This document shows positions 520-23,245 of a stretch of DNA of 23,245 bases, in pieces. The notes beneath the pieces were generated by a model. That model was given only the letters and a program-made list of their open reading frames with translations, ran no database searches and was not told where the DNA came from. The stretch's first letter is position 1. Every line of letters starts with the position of its first letter. The stretch lies in the IMG/VR virus record IMGVR_UViG_2718217709_000004, one strand, 5' to 3'. The translations under genes were made by a program, and so were the position numbers. The DNA is from a virus. Taxonomy: Duplodnaviria > Heunggongvirae > Uroviricota > Caudoviricetes.

Positions 520-780
520 TTAATTCTGAGGTAAAGGCAAGCTCATCTGATTGTTTCCCCTGTGTGAAGCTGGCAGTTCATGCCACGGGATACCTTCTGA
601 AGAGTGAACGCCGGAGGCGTGTTTCGATGTGAATTTATGGAAAGCTTCCAGTGTTGAGAAGCATACGCCGCATTCCAGGTTGTTACACTGGTAATACTTT
701 TGCCGCACGGTGTTTGAATCATTTTCCGGACGACTGGTGCGGATACGGGCAGATGCGCCACAAAGCGGACAACGGAACAT
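520..780 (-). CDS. ogr: Ogr/Delta-type zinc-finger late gene activator
   Basis: 86-aa ORF beginning MFRCPLCGASARIRTSR...YYQCNNLEC, matching the P2 Ogr pattern MFHCPLC...HQCQNVNC (CxxC...CxxxxC). GGAGG RBS upstream of the ATG. Confidence 0.85.
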   Translation of the reverse strand: MFRCPLCGASARIRTSRPENDSNTVRQKYYQCNNLECGVCFSTLEAFHKFTSKHASGVHSSEGIPWHELPASHRGNNQMSLPLPQN

Positions 781-822
781 AGCGACCTCCCTTAACGTGG
801 TGCTGCCGCTATTCTAAGTTGC

Positions 823-1932
823 TCACTCTGTTTCCGCTATCCATTCCGGGATTTTTGCCTCAAGCTCAAGCTGCGTGGTAAAGCCGCTGTTATCAATAGT
901 GTGCTCGGCTTTTGCAATGATCCAGTCCTGATTATCAATCTCGCTTTTAAATCCTGTTACCGTACCATGCATTTCGGGGTAGAGTTCTGCACGTCCACGC
1001 GCCAGCGTGATGGAGAATGATGCGGCTCCGCGTTGTAGCTGCTGCCACTTTGCCGCCGCTGCGCGTCTTGCTGCCTGTTCGTTCTGATAGGTCTTGCGTA
1101 ACACAAACACATTGCCTTCCGCGCCTTCCATATAATCACCTTCACGGCTGCTGCTTTTCTCCTTTTTGGGTTTTGGCGGTTTGCGGCGTTTCACGCTGAC
1201 TTTTTTCTTTTTCCCGTAATTAAGATCAAGCCAGTAAGCGCGTACCCCCGTATACGCTTCGCGGTCAGCAATGCGGAACTGATGGCGATCGCCACTGCTG
1301 CGCGTGATGGCGAACGAGGGCAACGGCTGGCCCTGTGCGTTCACGCCACCGCCTGGCATGATGAATAACAGATTACCGCTTTTTACCGTAGTGATTGCGC
1401 CCAGCATTTCCGCCATGCGCGTAAGGAAGGACATGTCGCTTTCTTCGGTCTGGTCGGCGTGGTCGATTTCGATATCCATCAGCATTTCGCTGATTTGCGG
1501 TTTCAGACCATACCGATGAGCGATGGCGGATACCACACGCTCAACGGTCACATCATGCCAGGACACCTCACGTTTAACGTTAAATTCATCCCGAAAATCT
1601 GCGCTTCTGGCTGAAACAGTCAGCCTGTCCGGCGGTCCTTCGTGAGCGATTTCATCAACAATGTAAGTGCCTTTTTCTGTCAGCGGTTCTCCCTTCCAGC
1701 CAATGAGAACCGTCAGGCGCGCGCCCCGTGGCGGTAGCTGCAACTGACCATCCGCATCATCCAGCGTGATGGTGAGCTGGTCCGCCTCAAATCCCCGGTT
1801 GTCGGTCAGTGACAGGCTCATCAGGCGCTCTGCCACGCCTGACAGCGTTTTACCCTCCGCGAGAATATCAAAATCCGGCATTTTTACGGGGTCTGTGCCC
1901 TGACTGAGCAATTGCATGGTGGTGTCGGTCAT
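823..1932 (-). CDS. D: P2 gpD-like tail protein (late control gene D)
   Basis: Contains the conserved RLMSLSLTDNRGFEADQL block typical of gpD. Start placed at MTDTTMQLL (ATG 1930-1932) because a GGGAGG RBS precedes it; the ORF-track start at 2064 would add an R/S/T-rich leader. An internal start at MPDFDIL is possible. Confidence 0.8.
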   Translation of the reverse strand: MTDTTMQLLSQGTDPVKMPDFDILAEGKTLSGVAERLMSLSLTDNRGFEADQLTITLDDADGQLQLPPRGARLTVLIGWKGEPLTEKGTYIVDEIAHEGPPDRLTVSARSADFRDEFNVKREVSWHDVTVERVVSAIAHRYGLKPQISEMLMDIEIDHADQTEESDMSFLTRMAEMLGAITTVKSGNLLFIMPGGGVNAQGQPLPSFAITRSSGDRHQFRIADREAYTGVRAYWLDLNYGKKKKVSVKRRKPPKPKKEKSSSREGDYMEGAEGNVFVLRKTYQNEQAARRAAAAKWQQLQRGAASFSITLARGRAELYPEMHGTVTGFKSEIDNQDWIIAKAEHTIDNSGFTTQLELEAKIPEWIAETE

Positions 1933-2089
1933 CTGCTCCCTCCCTGTGCGGCATGGTCGCATGTGCGTGCGGAGGGGGTTACTGCTTTTTGTTGTCGCCG
2001 TGGCGAGAGAACGGCGCAGGGGTGAGATTACGCGCGTGGTGGGTGATGATTGTTGCCGAATCATTTAACGGATACAAGGGGCTGAAGCT

Positions 2090-3274
2090 ATGAGTGAAAC
2101 TCGTTTTCATGGTGCCCGTGTTACGGAAAATACCGACCTGGTAACAGCGATTAACGATGTTGATTCCAGCGTTATCGGTATCGTGGCAACGGCGGATGAT
2201 GCGGACGCGAAGCTGTTCCCGCTGAACAAGCCCACACTGCTGACCCGCGTCAATGACGTGCTGGGAAAATGCGGGACAACGGGGACGCTTTATCGTGCGC
2301 TTAAGGCCATCGCAGACCAGGTGAGTACAAAGGTGATCGTCGTTCGCGTGGCTGAACACAAAGAAGAAGACGGAAAAACGCAGGATCAACTGGTTATCGG
2401 TGGTTCTGAATCTGACGGCAGCTATACGGGGATGTATGCGCTGCTTGTTGCAGAGCAGGATGAAAGCATCGGATACCGTCCGCGTATTCTGGCCGCGCCG
2501 GAGCTGGACACGGAGGCGGTAACAAAATCCCTGTGCGTGATTGCGGGTAAACTGCGCGCGTTTGTGTATGCCTCATGTCACGGCTGTAACACGATGGCTG
2601 AGGCGATTACCTACCGCCAGAAATTCAACGAACGTGAGGTGATGCTCTTATGGCCGGACTTCATCGCCTACAACCCGAAAAGTGGCAAAAACGAAACGTT
2701 CCCCGCGCCTGCCTATGCGTGCGGCCTTCGTGCGTACATTGACCATGAGCAGGGTTGGCACAAATCGCTGTCCAACGTTCCGGTTAAAAATGTGCTGGGG
2801 ATGTCCAGGCATGTGTTCTGGTCGTTGCAGGCCGAAGACAGTGATGCCAACAGCCTCAACAACAAAGAAATCACGACCATTATTCGTCGCAACGGGTTCC
2901 GCTTCTGGGGCAACCGCACACCGGAAACGAACGCCTACATCTTTGAGGTGTATACCCGAACCGCACAGGTGCTGGCTGATTCAATTGCGGAAGCGCAGTT
3001 TGAAACCATCGATAGTCCACTGACGCCTGCGAACGTGAAGGATGTTATCAGTGCCATCAGGGCAAAACTGGATTCACTGGTGACTGCCGGGAAACTGATT
3101 GGGGCGTCGTGCTGGTATGACGTGGTGGATAACAGCACCACGAATTTACGTCAGGGGCGTGTGCGTATTCGCTACAAATATACGCCCGTTCCTCCGCTGG
3201 AAGACATGGAGCTTTACCAGTCGTTTACTGATGAATTCTTTGGTCCCGCATTTGCGGTGCTGGGAGGTGCCTGA
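2090..3274 (+). CDS. FI: tail sheath protein (P2 gpFI-like)
   Basis: 394-aa ORF of P2 FI size, immediately followed by tube, chaperone and tape measure genes; the stop overlaps the FII start (ATGA). Confidence 0.85.
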   Translation: MSETRFHGARVTENTDLVTAINDVDSSVIGIVATADDADAKLFPLNKPTLLTRVNDVLGKCGTTGTLYRALKAIADQVSTKVIVVRVAEHKEEDGKTQDQLVIGGSESDGSYTGMYALLVAEQDESIGYRPRILAAPELDTEAVTKSLCVIAGKLRAFVYASCHGCNTMAEAITYRQKFNEREVMLLWPDFIAYNPKSGKNETFPAPAYACGLRAYIDHEQGWHKSLSNVPVKNVLGMSRHVFWSLQAEDSDANSLNNKEITTIIRRNGFRFWGNRTPETNAYIFEVYTRTAQVLADSIAEAQFETIDSPLTPANVKDVISAIRAKLDSLVTAGKLIGASCWYDVVDNSTTNLRQGRVRIRYKYTPVPPLEDMELYQSFTDEFFGPAFAVLGGA

Positions 3275-3786
3275 TGGCTGTACCAAAACATCTTCGCTTT
3301 TTTACGCTGTTTGTGGATGGTGAAAACGAAGTGGGTAAGGTGACGTCCGTCACCCTGCCTAAACTGACGCGCAAAACCGACAGCTACCGGGGTGGTGGCA
3401 TGATGGGTGCGGTAAGTATTGATCTCGGTCTGGACGACTCCGCGCTTGATGCGAGCTTTGTCATGGGGGGCGCAGTTCGTGAGCTGTTCCTTAAGTATGG
3501 CGGCACGATTGACGGCACGCTACTGCGTTTTGCGGGTGAATACTACACCGATGCAGAAAGCGACCTGTATGAAGTCGAAATGCGCGGACGCGTGACGGAA
3601 ATTGATATGGGGGAAGCCAAACAGGGCGAAGCCACATCACACACTTACGCCATTAAAAACACCTACTACAAGCTGAGTGTTAACGATCGTCCGTTGTGGG
3701 AGATTGACCTGCTGAACTTCATTTACCGGAAGGACGGCAAGGACATTGTGCCCGATCGCATCCGTTCCGCGCTTGGGCTTGGCTGA
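3274..3786 (+). CDS. FII: tail tube protein (P2 gpFII-like)
   Basis: 170-aa ORF translationally coupled to FI; size and position match gpFII. Confidence 0.85.
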   Translation: MAVPKHLRFFTLFVDGENEVGKVTSVTLPKLTRKTDSYRGGGMMGAVSIDLGLDDSALDASFVMGGAVRELFLKYGGTIDGTLLRFAGEYYTDAESDLYEVEMRGRVTEIDMGEAKQGEATSHTYAIKNTYYKLSVNDRPLWEIDLLNFIYRKDGKDIVPDRIRSALGLG

Positions 3787-3840
3787 TAAGTAATATGCAG
3801 GCGGCGCAGTGCGTCGCCTCTGACTGAAAGGAGTTTCCTG

Positions 3841-4206
3841 ATGAAAGAGACGAAAAACATCGATACCGAAAACACGGTAGTTGCTGACACTGTGAAAGAA
3901 ACCAGTGAGCGTGGCGTAAAACTTACCCAACCAATTGAGCGAGGCGGCGAAAAAATCACGTATGTGGAGATCACCGGGGCTATTGAGCAGGCTGGATCTC
4001 TGCGAGATTTGTCGCTGTCTGATGTGCTGAATCTGAAAGCGGAATCCATGTTTACGCTGCTGTCACGAGTGACATCACCGCGACTGGATGAAGTGACGAT
4101 CAAAAAAATGGCATCCCGTGACTTTATTCAGTTATGTGTGGTTGCCGTAAATTTTTTGAGCGGTGCGGACTCTGGCGGGAAGAACGAACAGGCGACGGAA
4201 GCCTGA
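3841..4206 (+). CDS. E: tail assembly chaperone (P2 gpE-like)
   Basis: 121-aa acidic protein between tube and tape measure genes; carries a slippery TTTTTTG near its 3' end. Confidence 0.8.
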   Translation: MKETKNIDTENTVVADTVKETSERGVKLTQPIERGGEKITYVEITGAIEQAGSLRDLSLSDVLNLKAESMFTLLSRVTSPRLDEVTIKKMASRDFIQLCVVAVNFLSGADSGGKNEQATEA

Positions 4207-4370
4207 TCACGGTTGTGTGCTTTGAGCACATAGAAGACTTTGTGGCAGATATTGCCGTTATTTTTAACTGGTCGCCCGCCGAAATCTTCATGATGACGCC
4301 CGGCGAAGTGGTTAGCTGGCGTGAGCGGGCGGCACTTCGCAGCGGGAATGCAGACAATGAAGACTCTTGA
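3841..4370 (+). CDS. E+E' frameshift product (programmed -1 frameshift)
   Basis: Slippery heptamer T TTT TTG at 4152-4158 in the E frame; the -1 frame stays open to 4370 (same frame as track ORF 4134..4370) and ends overlapping the T start. This is the conserved chaperone frameshift arrangement. Confidence 0.65.
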
Positions 4371-7164
4371 TATCCGGGTCGCTTTCAGCGCCGTTGACAG
4401 GCTGACCCAGCCTGCCGAAAACGCCCGCCGCCTGATGGGGCAGTTTGGTGACTCCATCCAGCGAACGCAGGGGGCGATCAAAAATCTCGAGCGTCAGGCG
4501 CGTTCATTTGAGCGCGCCCGCGACGCTGTCAGTAAAGCGGATGCGGGTATCGTGAAAGCACGACGCCAGCTTAACGCCCTTAATCAGTTACAACGCACGG
4601 GTACAGTGCTCAGCGAAAAACAACAAAAGCTGATGCAGCAGTTAAGCACCCGGCTTGAACGCCTGAATGAATCGCGCACGCGGGAAATTCAGAAAATGCG
4701 GGAGCTTGGCGGAGAGCTGAAACGCCACGGCATTTCCCTGACAGGCAGCGATAACACCATCCAGCAGGCCATCAGACGCACCGAACAGTACAACAATCAG
4801 CTTGAACGCGAACGGCAGGCGCTTGCGCGTGTAACGCGGGCGCGTGAGCGGTATTCGCGCGCGCAGGAAACAGCGGGAAAACTGAAAACAGGTGGTGCAC
4901 TGGCAATTGGTGCGGCAGCGGCGGGCGGCTATGCTGCCGGGCGTTTTTTGCAGCCTGCGATCGGGTTCGGGAAAGAGATGTCCCGCGTTCAGGCACTGAC
5001 GCGAATCGACCAGAACAGCCCGCAGTTTAAGGCGCTGCGTGAGCAGGCGTTAAAACTTGGCTCTGAAACGCAGTTCACCGCAGGCGATGCCGCCAGTGGG
5101 CAGGCATTTCTGGCAATGGCTGGCTTCACACCGCAGGCCATTCAGGCTGCGCTTCCCGGCGTGCTGAGCATGGCAACGGCTGGCGGTATGGACCTTGGCG
5201 AGACGGCAGATATTGGCTCAAATATCCTGACGCAGTTCGGCCTCTCCGCTGACCAGATGGACCGGGTCGGTGACACGCTTACAGCAGTGTTTACCCGTAC
5301 TAACACTGACCTTCGCGCACTGGGCGAAACCATGAAATATGCAGGTCCGGTGGCGGGTAAGCTGGGAATATCGCTGGAGCAGGCCGCAGCGATGGCGGGC
5401 GTGCTGGCGAATATGGGTATCAGAGGGAGTGATGCCGGGACGGCAATGCGTGCCAGCCTGGCTCGTCTGGCATCACCGCCAAAGGCGGCAGCAGAAGCGC
5501 TGAAAGAGCTGGGTGTGTCCGTCTCTGATGCGAACGGCAAAATGCGCCCGATGGAAGATGTGCTGGCCGACCTTTATAAAGCCACCCGTAAATACGGGGA
5601 AGTTGACCGGGTATCGTTCTTTAAGGACATTGCCGGGGAAGAGGCTTTCACGTCGTTTATGGCTCTCGTTGATGCGGCGGGTGACGGCTCCCTGCCCAAA
5701 CTGAGAAAAGAACTTGAGGGCGCACGCGGTGAGGCTGAACGCACGGCAAAGGTTATGGCCAATAACCTTGATGGCGACCTGAAATCACTCGGCAGTGCAT
5801 GGGAAGGGCTGCGTATCCGCATTGCAGATCTGATTGATGGTCCGCTGCGTTCTGTCACGCAGTGGCTCACGCGGGTGGTCTCAAAGGTGACGGCGCTGGC
5901 ACAGGCCCATCCGGTACTGACGCGCCAGTTACTGATAGCAGGCGGTGCGCTGCTGGCAATGACTGCAACGGTTGGCTCGTTGTCGCTGGTTATTGGAGTG
6001 CTTCACGGGAAGCTGGCCACGTTGCGTCTTGGTTTTTCTCTCCTGACCGGATCAATGAATGCTGTCAGGCTCCTGCCAGCACTATGGGGAATGGTGACGG
6101 GTTCCGTTTCGTTACTGGGGGGCGCTATCGGGGCGCTGTTCAGCCCGGTCGGATTGATTGCTGCTGCGTTTGTGGCTGCGGCAGTTCTCATCTGGAAATA
6201 CTGGGAACCCATCAAGGCGTTTTATGCCGGGGTGTTCAGCGGGATTATGGAGCGGCTGGCCCCGTTACGCGAAACCTTTGAACGGTTTGGTCCTGTTTTT
6301 GACGCAATCGGAAGCGGGATAAGTCAGGTGTTTAACTGGTTTAAATCGTTGCTGTCACCGATGGAGTCCAGCAAGGAAACGCTGGATAAATGTACCAGTG
6401 CTGGCGAGATATTCGGTAACGTTCTTGGCGGTGCGTTACAGCTTGTTCTGACGCCCGCAAAAATGTTGCTGGATACGCTGGCGTGGATACTTGAAAAACT
6501 CGGTGTGCTTCCGGATGAAGCGGAAAGGGCGAGAAAGAAAATCGAAGACGCACAGCGTGCGGCCATTCTTCAGGACAAGGTTGCTCTGTTTCAGGGAGAC
6601 ATTGCGAAAATCAATCCGCCGAAGTCTGCGGAAAATGGCAATGGCACCGGAGGTGATAAACCCAAAGACAATAAACCGCTCACAGACAGCAATACCGGTA
6701 CGCTACGCAGACTCAGCAAAATTGCTGATAACACAGGTAAGCTGGTTGATGAGACGAAAAAACGTATTGGCCCCGGCGATATTGTCTTTAAGAACCTGCC
6801 CCGCGCACTTGCCGTTCGTGGGGAGTGGCAGGAGCGGAAGATTGTGCAGGTCAGTAAGCCTGCCCCCGCAATTAATATCACACCCGTGGTCCCGGCTCCG
6901 CTGCCTCCGGCGCTGGTCCCTGTTGTTGCGGCCAGCTCCCGCCCGGTGGCGGAGGCCATACGATCTCCAGTGGCATCAGTTCCTGTAACTTCCCGTAACC
7001 GGGAGCCTGTTGCCTCCGGATTTGGTGGTGAAATTCATGTTCATCTGCATAACGTTGTTACGCAGAATCCCCGCGAACTGGCGAAACTGGTCGGTGAAAT
7101 GGTCAGGGCAGAAATGGAACGGCGCGCCCGTGCCGGGCGTGGCAGTTTTTACGATAAAGATTGA
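4357..7164 (+). CDS. T: tail tape measure protein (P2 gpT-like)
   Basis: Long ORF (about 940 aa) with an N-terminal coiled-coil region, central hydrophobic/Gly-Ala-rich segments and a Pro-rich C-terminus. Start is uncertain between 4321, 4348 and 4357; 4357 (MKTLDIRV) overlaps the E' stop. Confidence 0.85.
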   Translation: MKTLDIRVAFSAVDRLTQPAENARRLMGQFGDSIQRTQGAIKNLERQARSFERARDAVSKADAGIVKARRQLNALNQLQRTGTVLSEKQQKLMQQLSTRLERLNESRTREIQKMRELGGELKRHGISLTGSDNTIQQAIRRTEQYNNQLERERQALARVTRARERYSRAQETAGKLKTGGALAIGAAAAGGYAAGRFLQPAIGFGKEMSRVQALTRIDQNSPQFKALREQALKLGSETQFTAGDAASGQAFLAMAGFTPQAIQAALPGVLSMATAGGMDLGETADIGSNILTQFGLSADQMDRVGDTLTAVFTRTNTDLRALGETMKYAGPVAGKLGISLEQAAAMAGVLANMGIRGSDAGTAMRASLARLASPPKAAAEALKELGVSVSDANGKMRPMEDVLADLYKATRKYGEVDRVSFFKDIAGEEAFTSFMALVDAAGDGSLPKLRKELEGARGEAERTAKVMANNLDGDLKSLGSAWEGLRIRIADLIDGPLRSVTQWLTRVVSKVTALAQAHPVLTRQLLIAGGALLAMTATVGSLSLVIGVLHGKLATLRLGFSLLTGSMNAVRLLPALWGMVTGSVSLLGGAIGALFSPVGLIAAAFVAAAVLIWKYWEPIKAFYAGVFSGIMERLAPLRETFERFGPVFDAIGSGISQVFNWFKSLLSPMESSKETLDKCTSAGEIFGNVLGGALQLVLTPAKMLLDTLAWILEKLGVLPDEAERARKKIEDAQRAAILQDKVALFQGDIAKINPPKSAENGNGTGGDKPKDNKPLTDSNTGTLRRLSKIADNTGKLVDETKKRIGPGDIVFKNLPRALAVRGEWQERKIVQVSKPAPAINITPVVPAPLPPALVPVVAASSRPVAEAIRSPVASVPVTSRNREPVASGFGGEIHVHLHNVVTQNPRELAKLVGEMVRAEMERRARAGRGSFYDKD

Positions 7165-7176
7165 GGAGTCATGGCC

Positions 7177-12474: not shown

Positions 12475-12619
12475 CGTTCACGCGGGCAGCGTAAACATCC
12501 GGGTTGAAGTTCTCGGCGGCTTCACGCAGATGTACCGGGCTGATTTCGCGGCCATCAACAGTTGATCCGGAGACAGCCACGCGAAACTTTTTGCGGGATG
12601 TCTTTTTTTCATTAGCCAT
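12359..12619 (-). pseudogene. O: capsid scaffold gpO N-terminal fragment fused out of frame to the J remnant
   Basis: MANEKKTSRKKFRVAVSGSTVDGREISPVHLREAAENFNPDVYAARVNVEHY parallels the P2 gpO N-terminus; GAGGGG RBS upstream. After about 50 codons the frame runs through J-derived sequence and stops at 12359. Confidence 0.7.
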
Positions 12620-12773
12620 AGTTTTTGCCCCTCTGACTGGTTCTTCAGTCATGATGGCAAAGCGTAACAGGCTGATACAAAGGGCTTTTGTTGTAAGAAA
12701 ACGGCCAGAACAGGGGGTTAAGGAGAACGGTTTCGCGCGCGGGTAATCTTCCTGTAATTACTCAGGGGGAGCA

Positions 12774-16975: not shown

Positions 16976-17341
16976 TTACTTCGTCATGCCATTCAGGGTG
17001 TCGCGGCAGACTGTAGCCAGCCGCTGAATTTCCAGCACGGTGTCTTCTGTGTCGGCATGGCGATGTGTGATGCGGATGCTGTCGGCAATCACATCGACGA
17101 TTGCAGAGGATGGGCGCTGGTAAATGCCAATAACGGACGGGGTGCCACCTTCAATGCGGTAAAGCCTGTAATTTCCCTCGTGGCTGTCAATCATGTAGCG
17201 ACCATCAATAACAATCTTTCCGTCAGCGAGCTGCGGTACAGGCAGGGATTTCAGGTACATGTCATAACGATCACGCACGCGAGCGGCAAGATCTCGTTCT
17301 GTGTTGAGCAGGTATTCAAGAAAGTCGTTGGCGAGAATCAT
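16976..17341 (-). CDS. hypothetical early protein (121 aa) immediately upstream of A
   Basis: Intact ORF whose stop lies 6 nt before the A start; family not recognised. Confidence 0.5.
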   Translation of the reverse strand: MILANDFLEYLLNTERDLAARVRDRYDMYLKSLPVPQLADGKIVIDGRYMIDSHEGNYRLYRIEGGTPSVIGIYQRPSSAIVDVIADSIRITHRHADTEDTVLEIQRLATVCRDTLNGMTK

Positions 17342-17413: not shown

Positions 17414-17644
17414 TTAATGGAGTTTGTTTTGCTGCTGGATGAGCTGTTGAAGCTCGTGCAGATCATCCGCCAGATAGCTGAAAACAGAGGCGGAATAAAT
17501 GTTTGATAGTGCGTGGCTGCGCTCATGCAGCATATTGATGTGCATGATTTGCGCGACGCGTGATGCGCGGGAAAGTCTGTGGTTGATTTCAGTCTGGATG
17601 TGACGACGCTCCGCGATAGTGCGGTGCTGTTTGCGGTCTGCCAT
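17414..17644 (-). CDS. hypothetical small early protein (76 aa)
   Basis: AAGAGG RBS about 7 nt upstream of the ATG; charged, helix-rich sequence; preceded by a structured leader. Confidence 0.5.
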   Translation of the reverse strand: MADRKQHRTIAERRHIQTEINHRLSRASRVAQIMHINMLHERSHALSNIYSASVFSYLADDLHELQQLIQQQNKLH

Positions 17645-17819
17645 GGTGTGGCCTCTTTGCTCGGTGATAGAAATAACTCACCATCCAGAGTTGAGAATCT
17701 CGGGGTGGCGAGACGTACAGGGTTCTCAACACCGGAGAGCAAAGAATCCGGCCCGACCGAAGTCGGCCCCGTACGCCCCGCCATAATTCTGACGCGAAAA
17801 AGACGTGGCAATACAGTGC

Positions 17820-17842
17820 GCACAAAAAAACCGCTTGCGCGG
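17820..17842 (-). terminator. rho-independent terminator within the early region (minus strand)
   Basis: On the minus strand: aaccgc-gcaa-gcggtt stem-loop (GNRA-type loop) followed by a run of seven T. Confidence 0.5.
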
Positions 17843-17966
17843 TTATGCGCTTTGCTCTGTATCGGGTTGAGAATCCCGGCACCCGTTTTATGAGCTGCAG
17901 CGGAAATGTAACCTGACCGATTGAGGCATGGCAAGCGGTTTTTTTGTGTGTGCATGTTCTGGTTTC

Positions 17967-18266
17967 TTACTGGTTCAGAAAAAAATCAAAAACGTTATCG
18001 ATGCGTTGCAGCAGCTCTTGCTGCATTGCTTCCGGCGTTTCCGGTTCGCCAGGTGCCCCCAGCGTTGCGCAGAAATCAGCGATTTCATGATGGAGCGTGA
18101 GGCGAATGGCAGGAGCCGTGGTTCTGGCGTGCTCCAGCTGATCCAGCAGTGCCAGCACAGCAGACGGCGAGAGCATTGCGCGAAATGCCAGTAATTTTTG
18201 AGGCGTTGCCATTCGTTGCAGGGCAAATGCCAGTTCGCGTAGCTTCTGGTGGTTGATGGTGCTCAT
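17967..18266 (-). CDS. hypothetical early protein (99 aa)
   Basis: ORF translationally coupled to the upstream gene; family not recognised. Confidence 0.5.
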   Translation of the reverse strand: MSTINHQKLRELAFALQRMATPQKLLAFRAMLSPSAVLALLDQLEHARTTAPAIRLTLHHEIADFCATLGAPGEPETPEAMQQELLQRIDNVFDFFLNQ

Positions 18267-18529
18267 GCTCTGGCTTCCTTCAGTAGCTGGTTAAACATGT
18301 GAGTAAGTGGATTGCTACACCCGAACAGCATCGGGTTTACGTGGTAAGAAGCCTGGCCTCCTGTTTTGCGAGCGCGACCACCTGTGCTGCGGTTTGTTCT
18401 GATGACTAAGCCGCCGCGCCAAAGTCGGCGTAACTCAGCATTAATGGCTGTGGTTGGGGTATTCAGTGCTGCGGCGATCTCTCCGCCGCTACACCCCGGA
18501 TGAGTAGCGATGTAGTCCAGAATGGTCAT
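18263..18529 (-). CDS. small winged-helix-like DNA-binding protein (88 aa)
   Basis: GGEIAAALNTPTTAINAELRRLWRGGLV resembles a winged-helix recognition helix plus wing; start and stop overlap the neighbouring genes. Confidence 0.5.
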   Translation of the reverse strand: MTILDYIATHPGCSGGEIAAALNTPTTAINAELRRLWRGGLVIRTNRSTGGRARKTGGQASYHVNPMLFGCSNPLTHMFNQLLKEARA

Positions 18530-18729
18530 CTGCGTGGCTCCTGTACCTGTCGGATAAGATTCACCCGCGCCACGTTGGTGGCGCAGAAGTAAGTGCCGTC
18601 AGTGAGGTAGATGTGGTGTGCATCCTTTTCCGAACGATGTTTGTCGATAGTGGTAATCAGGCGTTCGTCGACCTCGTATTCGCGCCCTCTGGAGGTAAAG
18701 CGAACGACGGGAAAATGCTTAATTGCCAT
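18526..18729 (-). CDS. hypothetical early protein (67 aa)
   Basis: AAAGGGGG RBS upstream of MAIKHF; stop overlaps the next start. Confidence 0.5.
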   Translation of the reverse strand: MAIKHFPVVRFTSRGREYEVDERLITTIDKHRSEKDAHHIYLTDGTYFCATNVARVNLIRQVQEPRR

Positions 18730-18752: not shown

Positions 18753-18944
18753 CTATGCGTTAAATACGGCACATTGCGCGTCATCAATGAATACAGCTTG
18801 AGAGCGTTCTATCAGGCGGAGATTTGTCAGAAGCTCTGACTCTTTTGTGTGGTAAGGCGTTATCAGGTATTTGCCGTGCAGTTCGGCAATAATGGTGTAT
18901 TGCAGCATCATTGCTGAACCAAGAATATAAAATGCAGCGTCCAA
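18753..18944 (-). CDS. hypothetical small protein (63 aa), possibly the 3' part of a frameshifted gene
   Basis: ORF overlaps the distal part of the 19170 ORF in another frame; no clear RBS. Confidence 0.3.
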   Translation of the reverse strand: MDAAFYILGSAMMLQYTIIAELHGKYLITPYHTKESELLTNLRLIERSQAVFIDDAQCAVFNA

Positions 18945-18949
18945 TGCTG

Positions 18950-19170
18950 GACGGATTCATGGCTGCAACTGTTGACTGTGTTTTAAGAGTGTCGATTTCT
19001 TTGCTCTGTTCCTCAATAACTTTGGCTGCTTCAGAGGCGGCTATTGCGATGGTCAGTGCGTAAAGCGCTGCCATATGTTGATTATCTTTCTGGGCTGCCC
19101 TGGACAGCTTGTCTTGCTCTGCTGACACTATTTTTAATGTATTGATAATATTTTTTTCTTTTGCGTTCAT
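18950..19170 (-). CDS. hypothetical coiled-coil protein (N-terminal ~70 codons of track ORF 18784..19170)
   Basis: The N-terminal part is helical and protein-like; beyond about 18950 the same frame becomes low-complexity and overlaps the 18753..18944 ORF, suggesting a frameshift or an early natural stop. Confidence 0.3.
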
Positions 19171-19262: not shown

Positions 19263-19376
19263 TTATTTGTCAGTAAAAAAGCGTTCAATCTTTTTTACTG
19301 AATGAATAATTCGCATAATCCCAATGGCGCAGGCCACCGAAATAATCAGAACAAGCCATGAGATAAATATACTCAT
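19263..19376 (-). CDS. small single-pass membrane peptide (37 aa)
   Basis: Hand translation gives MSIFISWLVLIISVACAIGIMRIIHSVKKIERFFTDK; the ATG overlaps the stop of the upstream gene (ATGA). Below the ORF-track size cutoff. Confidence 0.45.
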   Translation of the reverse strand: MSIFISWLVLIISVACAIGIMRIIHSVKKIERFFTDK

Positions 19377-19615
19377 GCGATATTCCCCAGCTTATACGGT
19401 TCAATGTGTTCCCCGCATTCTGCGGCACAGATCAGCTCGGAAAGTTCGTTAAGTGCATCCAGATCATCAGCGTAAAAAGCAACGTCATACAAACTCCGGA
19501 TTGCCCTGGTCAATGAGTCACGGGCTGCATGTTCAGCATGAGCGCCTGATGCACTTAAGCGAAAATAAAATCGTTCAAGTGCTTTGTTAATGAGAGTTTT
19601 ATATTCTTTGCCCAT
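19373..19615 (-). CDS. hypothetical early protein (80 aa)
   Basis: Intact ORF in the early operon; family not recognised. Confidence 0.5.
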   Translation of the reverse strand: MGKEYKTLINKALERFYFRLSASGAHAEHAARDSLTRAIRSLYDVAFYADDLDALNELSELICAAECGEHIEPYKLGNIA

Positions 19616-19626
19616 CGCAACGCCCT

Positions 19627-19905
19627 TTAATCTGCTTTCTGAATTTCAGCTTCTGAATCCATACAAATAATTTCGATATAGGGTTCATCGCCATTAACCT
19701 GACGTGCCTTTTCAGCTTCGCTAATGATTTCTCGTACGGTCTGGTACGGAAGCTCCACAGTCAGGCGCGTACCGTTCAGATAAACGTAAGTAGTTGCGTT
19801 TTTTTCGGATGGAACAACTCCGTCAATGGCTGATGCGCGTAATAACAGTTCACCGCGAAAATCAATAAAACGGATAAATACACCTTGTGCATGCTCTTTG
19901 GTCAT
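19627..19905 (-). CDS. hypothetical early protein (~92 aa)
   Basis: Start placed at MTKEHAQG (ATG 19903-19905), 10 nt after the upstream stop; the longer track ORF would overlap the preceding gene. Confidence 0.45.
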   Translation of the reverse strand: MTKEHAQGVFIRFIDFRGELLLRASAIDGVVPSEKNATTYVYLNGTRLTVELPYQTVREIISEAEKARQVNGDEPYIEIICMDSEAEIQKAD

Positions 19906-19915
19906 AAAGCACCTG

Positions 19916-20266
19916 TTATAAATCAGCCTGTTTAATAAAACTTTGCCCGCGAAGCAGACGATCAACCGTGCGAAGTGCTTCGTATAATGTGAAATCCTGC
20001 CCGAAGTGATTGTCGCCGCAGTTCAATGCAAAAATGCGGTTTCCGGTAAACGGATTGCGTGGGCATTTGTGGATCACGATTCCAGCTTTCTCAATCAGCC
20101 AGGCATGCTCGCCGATTTGTTTTACAGCGTGGCCATCCGGTGTTGCGTGCGTCTCGTTCAGGTTATAGCGACTGTTACTACGTGATGCACTGGTAGCGAC
20201 GTGGTGTACATGGCGTTCTACGCTATTACGAAATTTGGAGTATGGATTATTAGCGTTTTTTTTCAT
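19916..20266 (-). CDS. hypothetical early protein (116 aa)
   Basis: Intact ORF; family not recognised. Confidence 0.5.
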   Translation of the reverse strand: MKKNANNPYSKFRNSVERHVHHVATSASRSNSRYNLNETHATPDGHAVKQIGEHAWLIEKAGIVIHKCPRNPFTGNRIFALNCGDNHFGQDFTLYEALRTVDRLLRGQSFIKQADL

Positions 20267-20287
20267 GATGGTGCTCTGTTCATTGTT

Positions 20288-20491
20288 TTAGCTGTTAGCC
20301 AAAGCGTCTTTTAACATCGCCACAAGGTTTACTTCAGGCTTTTCCATTTTGGCGCGTTTGGGGCGGATAATAATTCGACCGTCAGCCAACATCTTTTTGC
20401 ATGTATTAAGAGGGATACCTGTTATCTCTGCATATTTCTGCAGGGATACATAGGGGGCATTCACATTGATATTGATGGTTATACCTGACAT
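20288..20491 (-). CDS. small DNA-binding protein, Cox/Apl-like (possible excisionase / switch regulator)
   Basis: 67 aa; YVSLQKYAEITGIPLNTCKKMLADGRI resembles the helix-turn-helix of P2 Cox-type proteins; second gene of the lytic-side operon. Confidence 0.45.
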   Translation of the reverse strand: MSGITININVNAPYVSLQKYAEITGIPLNTCKKMLADGRIIIRPKRAKMEKPEVNLVAMLKDALANS

Positions 20492-20507
20492 CCCACTAGC
20501 CTCCTGA

Positions 20508-20714
20508 TCAGGAAGATTTGTTTTGTTCTTTCTGGGTTAGCTCTAGGCCGCGAAGGAAGATCATGCGCGCCATGTTAGAGGATGAGCGTTGTTCTTTAGC
20601 TGCCATTTCATCAATGACGGCTCGCTCCTCGAGGGACAGCCGAAGTGCCAGTCTTGGACCTGTGGCGGTGTTACGCGGAATGCGTGATCTGGTATCGTGA
20701 AGAACTTGTTTCAT
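20508..20714 (-). CDS. ribbon-helix-helix (Arc/CopG-like) regulator, first gene of the lytic-side operon
   Basis: ALRLSLEERAVIDEMAAKEQRSSSNMARMIFLRGLE fits the beta-strand / helix / helix pattern of RHH proteins; transcribed divergently from the repressor gene. No obvious RBS. Confidence 0.5.
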   Translation of the reverse strand: MKQVLHDTRSRIPRNTATGPRLALRLSLEERAVIDEMAAKEQRSSSNMARMIFLRGLELTQKEQNKSS

Positions 20715-20756
20715 AGTGGTATATTGTGATCATCTAATAGCTCGTGAAATCATTTT

Positions 20757-20774
20757 GGTATCAAAAAAGATACC
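20757..20774. promoter_or_regulatory. palindromic candidate operator in the divergent switch region
   Basis: Perfect inverted repeat ggtatc-aaaaaa-gatacc between the divergent RHH and XRE genes; a second ggtat half-site and a tgatca palindrome lie at 20718-20732. Confidence 0.4.
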
Positions 20775-20790
20775 TGTCAAGGTTTTTTGT

Positions 20791-21195
20791 ATGAAAAATG
20801 ATATTGGTCAGCGGTTGCGTGAGGAAAGGGAAAGATTGGGACTTAGTCAAGTTGCCATGAGCGACATTGGTGGAGTCAAAAAGCTAACTCAGCTTAGATA
20901 TGAGAAAGGAGATAGCTTTCCTGATGCTGCGTATTTGGCAGCGCTGTCTCGTTTTGGCCTTGATGTTCAGTATGTTGTGTTGGGAATTCACTCACCTGAA
21001 ACTTATAACGATGATGAGCAGGAGTTGATTACTCGCTTTCGAGCAGCTTCGTTAGATGTGAAAAACGCGGTGATTGGGGCTTTAAAAGGTGCGATCAGTG
21101 AAAAGGAAACTCAGCCATCAGGACGTGAGTTAAATATTTCTGGTGGTAATAACCGTATCGCTGGTCGTGACTATAACGAAACTAAGGGTAGGTGA
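20791..21195 (+). CDS. XRE-family helix-turn-helix repressor (CI-like immunity repressor candidate)
   Basis: IGQRLREERERLGLSQVAMSDIGGVKKLTQLRYEKGDSFPDAAYLAALSRFGLDVQYVVLG is a classic Cro/CI-type HTH; divergent from the lytic operon and co-directional with int. Start taken at ATG 20791 (MKNDIGQ), possibly leaderless, rather than the upstream GTG at 20716. Confidence 0.7.
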   Translation: MKNDIGQRLREERERLGLSQVAMSDIGGVKKLTQLRYEKGDSFPDAAYLAALSRFGLDVQYVVLGIHSPETYNDDEQELITRFRAASLDVKNAVIGALKGAISEKETQPSGRELNISGGNNRIAGRDYNETKGR

Positions 21196-21210
21196 TAGTA
21201 GGGAGGTGAC

Positions 21211-21861
21211 ATGGCCGTCAACTCAAACGGTTCAAACAATCGCGTTGCTGGGCGTGATTTTCACGAAAAGAATATTCAGATAGAGCGATATGATGGTTCT
21301 CATACCGTCAATATCGCAATCCCTTCGAATAATGATGATGACGATCGCCCTTTGCTTAAGGCTCAGCGTAAGGAGCTAAATAGCTTGGTTGCTGCTATTG
21401 CAGAAGCTAGCAATACTGAAGCGTTTATTATTTGGCAAAAAGTACATGCGGAGATTGGTGTAGCTGGTATTGATGATATGACAGTAAATCAATATAAAAC
21501 AGCGGAGAGTTTTCTGCATGCAATGCTTGAGCGATGTAAAGATCATGATGCCTGTAAGGCTCTTGTAAGTTTATTACTACGTAACAGTGAAGACTGTGGA
21601 CTTCGACAAAAACTTCTGCGGTATTGCCATATCAATTTCGGTACAGGACGTTTAAACGATCTTACTCGTTCTCAGTTACAGTCTGCATTGTCGTGGTTAG
21701 AGCAACAATCGGCATCAAGCCACACAGAGAGTTCGACCTTACCAGAAGTCCGACTTCGTGCTTCAGAATTAATCCGACTTTATCCAAAAGAAATAATATT
21801 CTTTATCTGCGTAGGGGTTTTGGTAGGCGGTGTCATTTCTAGGGCGTTTTTTAATTTGTAA
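21211..21861 (+). CDS. tail-anchored membrane protein of unknown function (216 aa)
   Basis: Strong GGGAGG RBS; soluble N-terminal domain with a DDDD tract and a C-terminal hydrophobic helix IIFFICVGVLVGGVI. Its N-terminus repeats the C-terminal motif of the upstream repressor. AT-rich. Confidence 0.6.
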   Translation: MAVNSNGSNNRVAGRDFHEKNIQIERYDGSHTVNIAIPSNNDDDDRPLLKAQRKELNSLVAAIAEASNTEAFIIWQKVHAEIGVAGIDDMTVNQYKTAESFLHAMLERCKDHDACKALVSLLLRNSEDCGLRQKLLRYCHINFGTGRLNDLTRSQLQSALSWLEQQSASSHTESSTLPEVRLRASELIRLYPKEIIFFICVGVLVGGVISRAFFNL

Positions 21862-21890
21862 TCTTACTTGAGCTAAATTGAGGTAATGAT

Positions 21891-22238
21891 ATGAAAGTAA
21901 AAAAGGTTCAACTATTAGTTACTTTTTTATCTATGTTTTCTTTTTCCGCCGTCGCAATGCCTTTTAAAACTATTGAACGTGAGAGTTTCAATGGGGTATG
22001 GCCATTTAATACTGATGAGGTTCAATTACAGTGTCTTGATGGTAATCCTTATGTGATGAATTTTGACGATAATAAGTTATATGCACTTACAGGTTTGGCT
22101 CGAATAAAAGGTAAAACATTTGGTGCGTTACCGTTAGATAACAATAATCCATTTTGGCTAGATAATGATGCCGCCCCAGGGTTAAAAAAGAGCCTGGGGG
22201 ATGTCACTAAGGCTGCATTTGATTTATGTGATAAGTAA
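21891..22238 (+). CDS. secreted small protein with a Sec signal peptide, DUF2511 (YebY)-like
   Basis: N-terminal MKVKKVQLLVTFLSMFSFSAVA signal peptide, two Cys, WPF and YALTG motifs; GAGGTAA RBS. The family assignment is from memory, not a search. Confidence 0.55.
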   Translation: MKVKKVQLLVTFLSMFSFSAVAMPFKTIERESFNGVWPFNTDEVQLQCLDGNPYVMNFDDNKLYALTGLARIKGKTFGALPLDNNNPFWLDNDAAPGLKKSLGDVTKAAFDLCDK

Positions 22239-22243
22239 CTAAA

Positions 22244-23245
22244 ATGTCGGTTCGTAAGATTCCATCAGGTAAATGGCTTTGCGAATGTTATCCCTACGGG
22301 GCATCGGGAAAACGCATTCGTAAACAGTTTGCGACAAAAAGTGAGGCGCTCTCTTATGAGCGCCGTTTAATGAATAGTAGAGTTGGAGACGAGTTTCAAG
22401 ATGGTTCTGGTCCTCGTCTTTCTGAGTTGATTGCTCGTTGGTTTGAGATGTACGGTAAAACCTTGTCCTCTGGTGCAGAGCGCAAAGTCAAACTTGAGGC
22501 GATTTGTTCCAGGCTGGGAGATCCATTTGCTTCTCAGTTTGACAAAAATATGTTTGCCACTTATCGGGAAAGAAGGTTATCAGGAGAGTGGAATCCCAAG
22601 GGGAAGAAAAAACTTAGTGAAGCAACCGTTAATCGCGAGCAGTCATATCTACATGCTGTTTTTGCCGAACTGAAGCGCCTTGGGGAGTGGTCTGGTGAAA
22701 ACCCCCTGACTGGTATTCGCAAGTTTCGTGAGGAAGAAAAGGAACTGGCGTTTCTGTATGTAGATGAGATTGAACGCCTTCTGATTGCGTGTGATGAGTC
22801 ACGGAATAAAGATTTGGGGGTTGTTGTCCGTATTGGGCTTGCGACTGGTGCTCGGTGGAGTGAAGCAGAAGGGTTAAAGCAATCTCAAGTACTGCCCGGT
22901 CGAATCACATTTGTTAAAACTAAAGGAAAGAAGAACCGCACTGTACCGATTTCACCTCAATTGCAGGCTATGCTTCCCAAAAAACGAGGAGCGCTATTTT
23001 CACCATGTTATGAGGCTTTTGACGCTGCAATTAAGAGAGCGAAGATCGAGCTTCCTGATGGGCAATTAACTCATGTGCTACGTCACACGTTTGCCAGTCA
23101 TTTTATGATGCGGGGCGGAAATATTCTTGTGTTGCAAAAAATACTGGGGCATAGCGATATAAAAATGACTATGCGTTATGCGCATTTTGCTCCAGGTCAT
23201 TTAGAGGCTGCTGTTGAATTGAACCCTTTTGACAATAGAGGGTAA
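22244..23245 (+). CDS. int: P2-type tyrosine integrase
   Basis: 333 aa; N-terminal GKRIRKQF...KSEA and C-terminal ...HVLRHTFASHFMMRGGNILVLQKILGHSDIKMTMRYAHFAP (catalytic R, H-x-x-R and Y) parallel P2 Int. The stop is at the window edge; att is expected beyond it. Confidence 0.85.
   Translation: MSVRKIPSGKWLCECYPYGASGKRIRKQFATKSEALSYERRLMNSRVGDEFQDGSGPRLSELIARWFEMYGKTLSSGAERKVKLEAICSRLGDPFASQFDKNMFATYRERRLSGEWNPKGKKKLSEATVNREQSYLHAVFAELKRLGEWSGENPLTGIRKFREEEKELAFLYVDEIERLLIACDESRNKDLGVVVRIGLATGARWSEAEGLKQSQVLPGRITFVKTKGKKNRTVPISPQLQAMLPKKRGALFSPCYEAFDAAIKRAKIELPDGQLTHVLRHTFASHFMMRGGNILVLQKILGHSDIKMTMRYAHFAPGHLEAAVELNPFDNRG

Follow-up and report, generated by a model that had tools for sequence, protein, structure and literature searches.

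A very recently damaged P88-like prophage at leuZ of ETEC-type Escherichia coli and its retained regulatory and replication genes

Genes and features of the prophage

The window, i.e., the whole stretch of 23,245 nt that was analysed, has 100% identity to the chromosome of two ETEC-type E. coli strains, 254D-1 and 360D-1. The prophage that contains it is P88-like (Xuanwuvirus, P2 family) and integrated at the tRNA-Leu gene leuZ; both of its att copies, a 124-nt repeat of the tRNA-Leu 3' end, are present in the source genome. DNA identity to the phages P88, PhiR44_2 and 520873 is 94–96% across 68–77% of the window. Judged by these comparisons, the element is a defective P88-like prophage of an ETEC-type E. 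coli lineage, and the window is its interior. The phage type is ordinary and common in E. coli; the present copy is very recently damaged. The tail, late and cargo genes retained are as follows.

190..330, minus: hok/gef-family type I toxin gene at the ogr-proximal prophage end (PF01848, phrog_251, PGAP)
520..780, minus: ogr late-gene activator (Ogr/Delta zinc finger), intact (PF04606; 100% amino acid identity to PhiR44_2, 631, O145 and O111)
823..1932, minus: gpD tail gene, 369 aa, intact (99.2–99.7% amino acid identity, full length, to P88, PhiR44_2 and 631)
1989..2012, plus: late-promoter-like motif TTGTTGT-N12-AGAAC 5' of FI, putative Ogr-dependent PF promoter (motif match)
2090..7665, plus: tail operon FI to U, intact (PGAP), with the next six genes
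2090-3274, plus: FI, full length, gapless
3274-3786, plus: FII, full length, gapless
3841-4206, plus: E, full length, gapless
4215-4370, plus: E', intact by PGAP annotation only
4357-7164, plus: T, full length, gapless
7177-7665, plus: U, full length, gapless
7846..8391, plus: hexapeptide-repeat acetyltransferase cargo gene, low G+C (about 0.40; PF00132, phrog_2154)
8355-8972, minus: tail fibre assembly gene G (PGAP; full length, gapless vs strain 631)
8972-11629, minus: tail fibre gene H (PGAP; full length, gapless vs strain 631)
11640-12167, minus: gpI (PGAP; full length, gapless vs strain 631)
12688..12711, plus: second late-promoter-like motif, 5' of P', putative PP promoter (motif match)

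The hok/gef gene, found in P88 and in every copy examined, sits just outside the span (520–23,245) to which an earlier, sequence-only reading of this DNA referred. Every retained gene has its full length and, in one or more comparisons with a functional phage or full-length copy, aligns without gaps; dN/dS is 0–0.3. By this measure ten tail/late genes (D, FI, FII, E, T, U, G, H, I and the acetyltransferase gene) are as intact as the core. FI, FII, E, T and U have 97–100% amino acid identity to P88 and PhiR44_2; the gpD alignment is gapless to PhiR44_2 and 631 and has three gap positions against P88. A 266-aa 'VgrG/Pvc8' call at gpD in B2C is an annotation difference only, the DNA being identical. 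The motif TTGTTGT-N12-AGAAC matches twice in the window, against 0.10 matches expected; both sites lie upstream of late operons and recur in PhiR44_2, and they may function as Ogr-dependent promoters.

The replication, early, immunity and integration genes occupy the rest of the window.

14147..16969, minus: gene A replication endonuclease, 940 aa, intact (PF05840, E = 1.7e-129)
16976..17341, minus: early ORF, 121 aa, of a family without known function (phrog_3237)
17414..17644, minus: P4 epsilon-like 'derepression protein', putative antirepressor (PF25738, phrog_3688)
17701..17788, minus: C4-type antisense RNA (RF01695, 78.5 bits vs gathering score 45)
17824..17898, minus: isrK-type small RNA (RF01394, 59.5 bits vs gathering score 50)
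17967..18729, minus: early ORFs orf99, MarR-like winged-helix protein (18263-18529) and orf67 (annotation and profile matches)
18753..19170, minus: frameshifted early ORF of a family without known function (phrog_9338; +1 T insertion near 18932)
19263..20266, minus: early ORFs orf37, DUF4754, orf92 and DUF4761 (annotation and profile matches)
20288-20491, minus: Cox-like excisionase/repressor (phrog match; phrog_575 and phrog_3431 for the pair 20288..20714)
20508-20714, minus: Arc-like protein (phrog match, same pair)
20715..20790, no strand: switch region (sequence motifs)
20791..21195, plus: immunity repressor, 134-aa HTH protein without peptidase domain (HTH_31/HTH_3, phrog_8/4/3)
21211..22238, plus: two cargo ORFs of low G+C that separate the repressor gene from int, one for a 216-aa and one for a DUF2511 protein (profile matches)
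22244..23245, plus: tyrosine integrase, 333 aa, intact (PF24624, PF00589; HxxR and catalytic Tyr region aligned)

The description of int, A and ogr as intact holds: each is full length and matches proteins of full-length copies or of inducible phages. A is 98% identical to A of the inducible phage P88 with no gaps over all 940 aa, its HUH-type (HWHMMVF) and YIATY motifs are visible, and it has one private substitution, K126N. The integrase (WP_001300279.1) is the same protein in 631, EDL933, O145, 24AR0142 and H10407, and the Int, Cox-like, Arc-like, HTH repressor and Ogr proteins are 100% identical to those of full-length copies. Stops or frameshifts in int, A or the repressor, which would speak against an intact core, were looked for and none were found. 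The repressor is likewise full length, but it is the 134-aa HTH protein, which has a weak match to the P22 C2 HTH domain and is identical in the 631 and O111 copies, and not the 216-aa ORF. The latter (21211-21861) was rejected as the CI-like repressor, as it belongs to an uncharacterised family (phrog_5825) with a weak membrane-protein match and is called 'membrane protein' in the PGAP annotation of some copies.

The switch region, too, keeps its original sequence, except that this lineage alone has an extra T (+1) at 20783-20788, in the interval that separates the Shine-Dalgarno sequence of the repressor gene from its ATG. It contains a -35/-10 match for a leftward early promoter (20780-20752) and a palindrome, GGTATC-N6-GATACC (20757-20774), which may serve as promoter and operator; the early operon starts with the Cox-like and Arc-like genes. 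The statement that all early ORFs are intact fails at 18753-19170, where the frameshifted ORF fits its family only across residues 1–80 of 138. Exactly 10 genomes carry this frameshift allele.

The isrK and C4 antisense RNAs form a previously unannotated pair upstream of the epsilon-like gene, for the product of which a role has been proposed in the O157 prophage Sp13 (PMC2669165). Read from the sequence, the C4 loop UCUUUGCUC is complementary to the ribosome-binding site region of the derepression gene, GAGCAAAGA, and also to a site in isrK. The modules of P1 immI (C4 RNA - icd/ant) and P4 (CI RNA - epsilon) similarly have a C4-family RNA 5' of an antirepressor-type gene, with a loop complementary to the ribosome-binding site of that gene and to an upstream site. 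Unlike these, the present module belongs to the early operon of a P2-family element and has an isrK-type RNA beside it; its regulatory action is deduced from sequence.

Two deletions and the truncated genes

With PhiR44_2 as reference, exactly two internal deletions are found in the window, of 7,253 and 5,366 bp, in agreement with the large deletions claimed for the virion and lysis modules.

12160..12447, minus: gpJ baseplate fragment (J'), C-terminal 95 aa only (PGAP pseudogene; 100% amino acid identity to PhiR44_2 J, without stops)
12447/12448: deletion junction 1, J' fused to O', 7,253 bp gone, imperfect microhomology TG(T)ACGG (PhiR44_2 comparison)
12449..12619, minus: gpO scaffold fragment (O'), N-terminal 57 aa (PGAP; out of frame with J' by coordinates and ORFs 12359-12652 and 12160-12474)
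12774..14024, plus: terminase large subunit P fragment (P'), N-terminal 417 of 583 aa (PGAP pseudogene; 98.3% amino acid identity, without stops, dN/dS 0.11)
14024/14025: deletion junction 2, P' fused to the 3' flank of A, 5,366 bp gone, 2-nt microhomology (PhiR44_2 comparison)

The larger deletion extends between O and J: O has lost its C-terminal part and J its N-terminal part, and N, M, L, X, holin, endolysin, LysB/C, R, S, V and W are gone. The smaller one took the C-terminal end of terminase P along with portal Q, the cargo genes and ParM/ParR. Microhomology at both junctions is only 2–6 nt, and the two deletions are illegitimate and random-looking. By P2 synteny (the P2 cos is 186 bp past Q), cos was almost certainly lost within the 5.37-kb deletion; a P88-type cos was searched for and not located. 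Neither stops nor frameshifts are present in J', O' and P'. Comparison of dN/dS between retained and degraded genes, as the sequence-only reading had proposed, gives 0–0.13 for these fragments, the range of the intact genes.

The ancestor would have been a full-length temperate phage of about 36.7 kb, which shed about 12.6 kb via two illegitimate, microhomology-mediated deletions. The functions lost in this way comprise capsid, scaffold, small terminase, part of the large terminase, portal, head completion, tail completion, baseplate proteins and the entire lysis cassette.

Relatives and sister copies

P88, which is mitomycin-inducible and plaque-forming (PMC5285337), and PhiR44_2 have 95.6% DNA identity to the window across 68–73% of it. 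They share its gene order, with the FI-to-U operon opposite to D and ogr, and the same A (98% amino acid identity for P88), hok/gef and epsilon-like genes. In contrast to the window element, they are complete phages with a different immunity region and integrase (39% amino acid identity), and P88 has an invertible tail-fibre segment in place of the acetyltransferase gene. Full-length prophages of the same immunity type are found in E. coli 631, O145 RM8988-C1, O111:H11 88-19539, 24AR0142 and ETEC H10407. These five occupy the same att site, and their Int, repressor, Cox, Arc-like protein and ogr match those of the window exactly or almost so, but they keep all late genes and measure 36–38 kb; the H10407 prophage carries IS30 in D and IS1 near Q.

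Sp13 of O157:H7 Sakai (CP-933T of EDL933) is a defective P2-like prophage that shares both phage type and integration site (leuZ-yecA) with the window element. Its Int (WP_001300279.1), Cox and DUF2511 are identical to those of the window, its repressor is near-identical, and it has the same early ORFs, epsilon-like gene and A. Like the window element, it has lost head, packaging and lysis genes and kept those for integration, regulation and replication. The damage is nonetheless independent: IS30 took ogr and most of D, an IS3-associated deletion extends from H through Q, and T is frameshifted. Sp13 keeps ParM/ParR, whereas the window lacks these and has ogr, D, T and H. Although devoid of morphogenesis genes, Sp13 is mitomycin-C inducible, circularises and is amplified about 30-fold (Asadulghani et al. 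2009, PMC2669165). Inducibility is thus a measured property of Sp13 and a prediction for the window element.

The lineage marked by the shared frameshift comprises 10 genomes, which are one substitution apart over the sequence shared with the window (up to about 23 kb); one has an extra 1-nt insertion in the P' pseudogene. Four deletion architectures occur among the 10. In 5,426 complete genomes, the J'-O' junction is present in two and the P'-A junction in eight. The deletions of the sister copies differ and are partly independent. For example, E2386, one of the 10, has lost the tail genes, the acetyltransferase gene and, via IS1, DUF4754 through cox, the repressor, cargo genes and int; the acetyltransferase gene is IS1-split in five genomes (E8-type copies); and ogr is gone from the O157 copies. 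The B2C-type and E8/window-type copies have lost the lysis cassette, R, S and part of V through independent deletions. Conservation of the element across strains is of a qualified kind: it recurs, but only as a decaying series.

A smaller remnant offers a further comparison. Slettan et al. reportedly found in 1992 that the cryptic P2 remnant of E. coli K-12 retains a functional ogr. In both P2-family remnants a regulatory gene outlasts structural genes, but that of K-12 is tiny and old, and the window element, at 24 kb, is recently damaged.

Decay, chance and selection

The element is probably a recently decayed prophage, the intact core of which reflects too little time rather than demonstrable selection. 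Because the damage is very recent, the undeleted parts keep their original sequence. This applies to int, repressor, switch, A and ogr, but equally to the genes for sheath, tube, tape measure and fibre, and the truncated pseudogenes are no exception. The proposed contrast between a kept core and a lost remainder is correct in that head, packaging, baseplate and lysis functions are gone, but it does not extend to the ten tail/late genes, which are equally intact. When two non-overlapping deletions of the observed sizes were placed randomly in the element, ogr and A-to-int were spared with p = 0.31. Among about eight deletion events the core was touched by one, against 2.4 expected (P(≤1 of 8) = 0.26 by chance). 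Simple recent decay is the only one of the four readings offered earlier that has support.

It is unlikely that selection on the host lineage instead favoured the loss of lysis and packaging, which are lethal, along with retention of the repressor (for superinfection immunity), ogr or cargo, that is, the acetyltransferase, 216-aa protein, DUF2511 and hok/gef genes. Such domestication would account for the fact that B2C-type and E8/window-type copies independently lost the lysis cassette, R, S and part of V, for Sp13 having likewise kept its core without lysis and head genes, and for core proteins identical to those of full-length copies. However, one substitution among ten genomes leaves no post-deletion divergence on which selection can be measured, pseudogene fragments are as conserved as genes, and the distribution of the deletions fits chance. 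Moreover, every candidate benefit was lost somewhere: the acetyltransferase in five genomes, the cargo ORFs and the whole repressor-to-int module in E2386, and ogr in O157, which argues against cargo, repressor-mediated immunity and ogr-dependent interactions alike. No known defence gene was found with PADLOC.

Considerably less probable still is a semi-autonomous mobile element, which would excise and replicate and be packaged by other prophages, or act on satellites via Cox, Ogr and the epsilon-like protein. The intact int, cox, A and att sites and the retained epsilon-like gene and C4 RNA are compatible with it, and Sp13 DNA is excised, amplified and found in particles despite the lack of head genes (PMC2669165). 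On the other hand, cos is almost certainly missing, and 254D-1 has a single matching place, so that a further P2-like prophage of close kinship was not detected there. The J'-O' form is limited to two near-identical genomes, which indicates vertical inheritance and not spread. An R-type tailocin is scarcely credible: the genes for sheath, tube, tape measure, U, D, the fibre and its chaperone have survived intact, but V, W, X, R, S, the whole lysis cassette and the V-to-G operon promoter are gone, J is reduced to its C-terminal 95 aa, and E2386 has no tail genes left.

A recently decayed prophage may still be partly competent. The 134-aa HTH repressor would silence the early operon, and cells with the element would be expected to be immune to phages that share its immunity type. 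Relief of repression would probably come through the epsilon-like antirepressor under control of the C4-type antisense RNA, whereupon the element could leave the chromosome and replicate by means of Cox, Int and A, as was shown for Sp13. The remnant alone would form no particles and would not lyse the cell.

As a counterpoint, the lysis and head region was lost while A, early genes and int were kept in three independently degraded lines (O157 Sp13, ETEC B2C-type and ETEC E8/window-type). This pattern is what selective removal of lethal functions, i.e., selection against lysis genes, would give. Similarly, E. coli lineages that differ greatly from one another share an immunity and int module of 99.2–100% identity, which could mean constraint as well as recent spread.

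Identity of the element and its two deletions

The entire 23,245-base window is matched at 100% identity (megablast) by the E. coli chromosomes of 254D-1 and 360D-1, both isolates from human diarrhoea. The Peduoviridae phages 520873, PhiR44_2 and P88 (genus Xuanwuvirus) are 94–96% identical to it across 68–77% of its length, and the P88-type genomes align with it in collinear blocks except for two deletions. The gpA of the window matches PF05840 (rolling-circle replication endonuclease; E = 1.7e-129), and its Ogr/Delta late activator matches PF04606 (E = 5e-14). The inverted FI-to-U operon, relative to D and ogr, was rejected as a rearrangement; this orientation is native to Xuanwuvirus.

In 254D-1 the element lies between tRNA-Leu (leuZ) and a second integrase island. 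An att direct repeat of 124 nt (tRNA-Leu 3' end and terminator) occurs at 5124–5247 and 29352–29473 of the 254D-1 locus; the window corresponds to 6001–29245 of that locus, and both att copies fall outside it. The gene set of a viable phage is incomplete, with O, P and J truncated and with N, M, L, X, holin, endolysin, LysB/C, R, S, V, W and Q missing. Flanking att repeats together with the loss of genes for particle formation identify a defective (cryptic) prophage. Elements of this kind are known, and a near-identical one has been characterised.

The loss of packaging and lysis functions, noted in the sequence-only reading, is borne out by alignment to PhiR44_2 and to full-length chromosomal copies, in which there are exactly two internal deletions.

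Deletion junctions in the window
12447/12448: junction 1, 7,253 bp gone (most of O, N, M, L, X, holin, endolysin, LysB/C, R, S, V, W and most of J); imperfect microhomology, TG(T)ACGG
14024/14025: junction 2, 5,366 bp gone (last 166 codons of P, portal gene Q, cargo and ParM/ParR); microhomology of 2 nt

At junction 1 the J stub (C-terminal 95 aa) meets the first 57 codons of O in a frame that disagrees, and at junction 2 the 3' flank of A is fused to terminase gene P. Among 5,426 genomes, the J'-O' junction is found in two and the P'-A junction in eight, and both serve as lineage markers for these ETEC strains. The P2 cosL sequence has no match in the window or in any complete P88-type genome, and the P88 paper names no cos site (PMC5285337). 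By synteny with P2, where cos adjoins Q, cos most probably lay inside the second deletion (5.37 kb).

Completeness of the retained genes

The int, repressor, A and ogr genes are indeed intact, as had been claimed. Int, the HTH repressor and Ogr, as well as the Cox-like, Arc-like, DUF2511 and 216-aa proteins, are 100% identical to the proteins of full-length copies, and A aligns with P88 A over all 940 residues without a gap (98% identity), with its HUH-type and YxxxY motifs present. The repressor described as CI-like is, however, the 134-aa HTH protein at 20791–21195 and not the adjacent 216-aa ORF, which belongs to a family without known function and is a "membrane protein" in some records. 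The further claim that all early ORFs are intact does not hold. The ORF at 18753–19170 (-) is frameshifted by an additional T in a T-run near 18932 in comparison with strain 631, and its PHROG family is matched over residues 1–80 of 138 only. Another additional T (T5 to T6), private to the lineage, is located at 20783–20788, between the Shine-Dalgarno sequence (AAGG) and the ATG of the repressor gene and just upstream of the -35 element of the divergent early promoter; it is not found in the 631, O145, O157 and O111 copies.

Intactness is also not special to the core of regulatory and replication genes. The tail genes D, FI, FII, E, T, U, G, H and I, and with them the acetyltransferase cargo gene, are full length and gapless like those of the core, and E' is called intact in the PGAP annotation. 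The contrast drawn in the sequence-only reading is therefore largely correct but incomplete, as it misses the frameshifted early ORF and the intact tail genes. A truncated D in B2C and 631 was rejected, because the 266-aa "VgrG/Pvc8" product is an annotation difference and the DNA is identical or full length.

Other features retained in the window
190–330 (-): hok/gef-family gene for a type I toxin, at the end of the prophage nearest ogr
7846–8391 (+): hexapeptide acetyltransferase cargo gene, low G+C
9101–9322: imperfect 63-nt direct repeat (78% identity, 159 nt apart) in tail fibre gene H
17414–17644 (-): P4 epsilon-like derepression gene, 76-aa putative antirepressor
17701–17788 (-): C4 antisense RNA, RF01695, 78.5 bits against a gathering threshold of 45, full model covered
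17824–17898 (-): isrK-type small RNA, RF01394, 59.5 bits
21211–22238 (+): low-G+C ORFs between repressor and int, encoding the 216-aa protein (phrog_5825) and the DUF2511 protein, of unassigned function

P88 and all copies examined, apart from that of O157:H7 EDL933, keep the hok/gef gene, which could stabilise the remnant; no Sok-type RNA scored above the Rfam gathering threshold. The slot of the acetyltransferase gene is occupied in P88 and in the O145 and H10407 copies by a DNA invertase and alternative tail-fibre cassette, and the gene is split by IS1 in five sister genomes, with a 9-bp target duplication at 8039–8047. The repeat in H probably reflects a structural motif that recurs in the fibre. 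The 216-aa and DUF2511 proteins are strongly conserved across all copies. No defence systems were found among the cargo and early proteins in a PADLOC scan.

The isrK and C4 RNAs, neither of which is annotated by PGAP, are located directly upstream of the derepression gene. Two sites are complementary to the C4 loop UCUUUGCUC: one is GAGCAAAGA, overlapping the ribosome-binding site of the derepression gene 8 nt before its ATG, and the other is in isrK. From these complementarities the three elements look like an RNA-controlled antirepressor module, in the same style as the control exerted by P1 immI and P4 CI. Mitomycin inducibility is a puzzle in P2-like prophages of the Sp13 type; the RNA pair may explain it and gives a concrete line to follow. 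A 205-aa ORF at 17338–17955 (-), with a protein annotation in PhiR44_2, overlaps both RNA genes and, in another frame, the derepression ORF, and contains a terminator-like hairpin (17844–17829). Its weak, sub-threshold "Ash family" match coincides with, and is accounted for by, the isrK/C4 RNA region. The ORF probably does not encode a real protein, and an Ash-like regulator was rejected in favour of the two RNAs and the 76-aa gene.

Decay or selection in a ten-genome lineage

The population comparison proposed in the sequence-only reading was carried out on 5,426 complete genomes, with the early-ORF frameshift allele as the lineage marker. The allele is present in exactly ten genomes. Within the sequence they have in common with the window (up to ~23 kb), these differ by a single substitution, at 16592, which is nonsynonymous (K126N in A), and by one homopolymer indel, in the P' fragment of E2386. 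The near-identical genomes nevertheless carry four architectures.

Architectures of the prophage in the ten genomes
B2C type (B2C, 2014EL-1346-6): I'-M and N'-P' deletions; Q through ParM kept
E8 type (E8, E54, E1648, E1654, LR883050): P'-A deletion, V'-N' deletion and IS1 in the acetyltransferase gene
Window type (254D-1, 360D-1): P'-A and J'-O' deletions
E2386: P'-A, O'-M' and M-FII' deletions, the latter two removing the tape measure and fibres; IS1-mediated deletion of DUF4754 through int

The IS1-mediated deletion in E2386 takes cox, the repressor gene and int along with DUF4754. Segments present in all ten genomes are window 1–3665 and 12828–19420, of which the second includes the P' pseudogene. 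The I'-M deletion of B2C (13440/13441 in its locus, L007) and the FII'-M deletion of E2386 (13826/13827 in L008) share one endpoint to the nucleotide. This is the gpM stop codon, in a GTTAAC palindrome beside a small hairpin; the intact site is near 21928 in the 631 locus (L002). Simple nesting of deletions does not account for the shared endpoint, which may reflect a break hot spot or recombination between variants. In a globally spread ETEC lineage with almost identical copies, about eight deletions and IS events have led to four different remnants. The finding, of limited importance, illustrates the speed with which a circulating temperate phage becomes a remnant.

When two non-overlapping deletions of the observed sizes were placed randomly on a reconstructed 36.7-kb ancestor, ogr and the 9.1-kb A-to-int block were spared in 31% of trials; the pattern is not more than chance. 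The core was touched by 1 of ~8 deletion events; uniform placement would give 2.4 (P = 0.26 for one or fewer), and selection is not supported by this difference. The dN/dS values of retained genes relative to P88, PhiR44_2 or 631 are 0–0.3, and those of the J', O' and P' fragments are in the same range (0–0.13), with no stops in the 417 codons of P'. As a selection test dN/dS was rejected, because it measures the long-term evolution of the living phage and not selection after inactivation, the divergence since the deletions being essentially nil and the pseudogene fragments giving equal values. With one substitution in the sequence common to the window and the ten genomes (up to ~23 kb), there is no power to detect purifying selection after inactivation.

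Recent decay, the null hypothesis of the sequence-only reading itself, is therefore the best interpretation, given one substitution among ten genomes and pseudogene fragments as clean as genes. Domestication is reportedly used by Bobay and colleagues (2014) in the sense of a prophage under purifying selection. It entails vertical persistence with accumulated substitutions, dN/dS below 1 in retained genes, and a retained module in all descendants. Here the retained module has not been kept by every descendant: E2386 is without DUF4754 through int, and the acetyltransferase gene is disrupted in five genomes. That selection favoured the loss of lysis and head genes, or the keeping of immunity or cargo, is unlikely. 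Three independently degraded lines are all without the lysis region, which speaks for it, but each proposed benefit is missing from some copy and the divergence on which to test selection is absent. It is similarly doubtful that the repressor/switch/Cox/Int/A core and the putative C4-RNA-controlled antirepressor gene form a selectively maintained, still inducible module, and that the repeated lysis and head losses in ETEC and O157 lines represent convergent domestication of one widespread phage type. If this were true, the maintained core would confer immunity and would let mitomycin trigger excision and amplification, as in Sp13. An intact core beside deleted structural genes should not be equated with selection where there is no divergence to test, because "conservation" here is equal in the pseudogene fragments and in the intact genes.

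A mobilisable element is unlikely, as cos is most probably gone and no other related prophage of P2 type was detected in 254D-1. A P4-like satellite would carry an alpha primase-helicase and sid/psu/delta and need a helper for all structural genes. In contrast, the element has a P2-type gpA as its replication gene and ten tail genes, and its likeness to P4 is confined to the epsilon-like gene and the C4-type RNA. An R-type tailocin, which the retained tail genes might suggest, has sheath, tube, baseplate and fibre genes and a lysis cassette without head genes, and is excluded by the deletion of baseplate genes V and W and of the lysis cassette and by the reduction of J to a C-terminal 95-aa fragment.

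Distribution of the phage type and predicted behaviour of the remnant

The immunity and int module (window 20233–23245) is present at a coverage of at least 80% in 515 of the 5,426 genomes, mostly with at least 99% identity, and the attL-proximal arm is present in 572. The sampled copies of O145 RM8988-C1, O111:H11 88-19539, 24AR0142 and 631 are full length with every late gene, and that of ETEC H10407 is nearly full length, with IS30 in D. Therefore, the phage type is now circulating.

CP-933T of O157:H7 EDL933 (Sp13 of Sakai) occupies the same site with an identical Int protein and has been degraded independently. In it, IS30 removed ogr and most of D, neither of which is lost in the window; H through Q were lost by an IS3-associated deletion, and T is frameshifted, while A, the early genes and the immunity region are kept. 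Sp13 retains integration, excision, regulation and replication functions and is without morphogenesis and lysis functions (Asadulghani et al., PMC2669165), so the pattern seen in the sequence-only reading has already been published for this very phage type. The Sp13 repressor has no peptidase motif, yet the prophage is mitomycin-C inducible; it circularises, amplifies ~30-fold and even occurs in particles (PMC2669165).

The 76-bp switch region of the window contains a sigma-70-like early promoter and an adjoining palindrome. No LexA box (CTGT-N8-ACAG, 0–1 mismatch) is found near the early or antirepressor promoters, the sole exact match being inside A. The P2-type late-promoter dyad TGT-N12-ACA was rejected, being neither enriched nor at promoters. 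A TTGTTGT-N12-AGAAC motif upstream of FI and P' is only suggestive, as it was drawn from those two promoter regions themselves.

From this gene content, the HTH repressor, lacking an S24 peptidase domain, would silence a leftward early operon of the Arc-like and Cox-like genes, small ORFs, the epsilon-like gene and A. Derepression would lead to excision by Cox and Int, and then to A-dependent rolling-circle replication from an origin presumed to lie inside A, as in P2. Two late-promoter-like sites remain, upstream of FI and of P', and may still be open to activation by Ogr. Induction is expected to be abortive, because capsid, terminase, portal, baseplate and lysis proteins could not be made and cos is most probably lost. 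The remnant may still give immunity to phages of the same type, and may excise on induction like its O157 relative.

The 631 copy (L002 4071–5210) and the O111 copy (L012 3885–6362) have an extra "YecA family protein" gene between ogr and D, interrupted in O111 by ISVsa5, an insertion that the window does not have. To the right of the window, a second integrative island (29352–35245 of the 254D-1 locus) follows in tandem after the attR copy of the tRNA-Leu 3' end, with genes for a site-specific integrase, DUF2787 and DUF726. It is absent from 631, EDL933 and O111 and present in H10407, and in E2386 type I restriction-modification genes are located further on.
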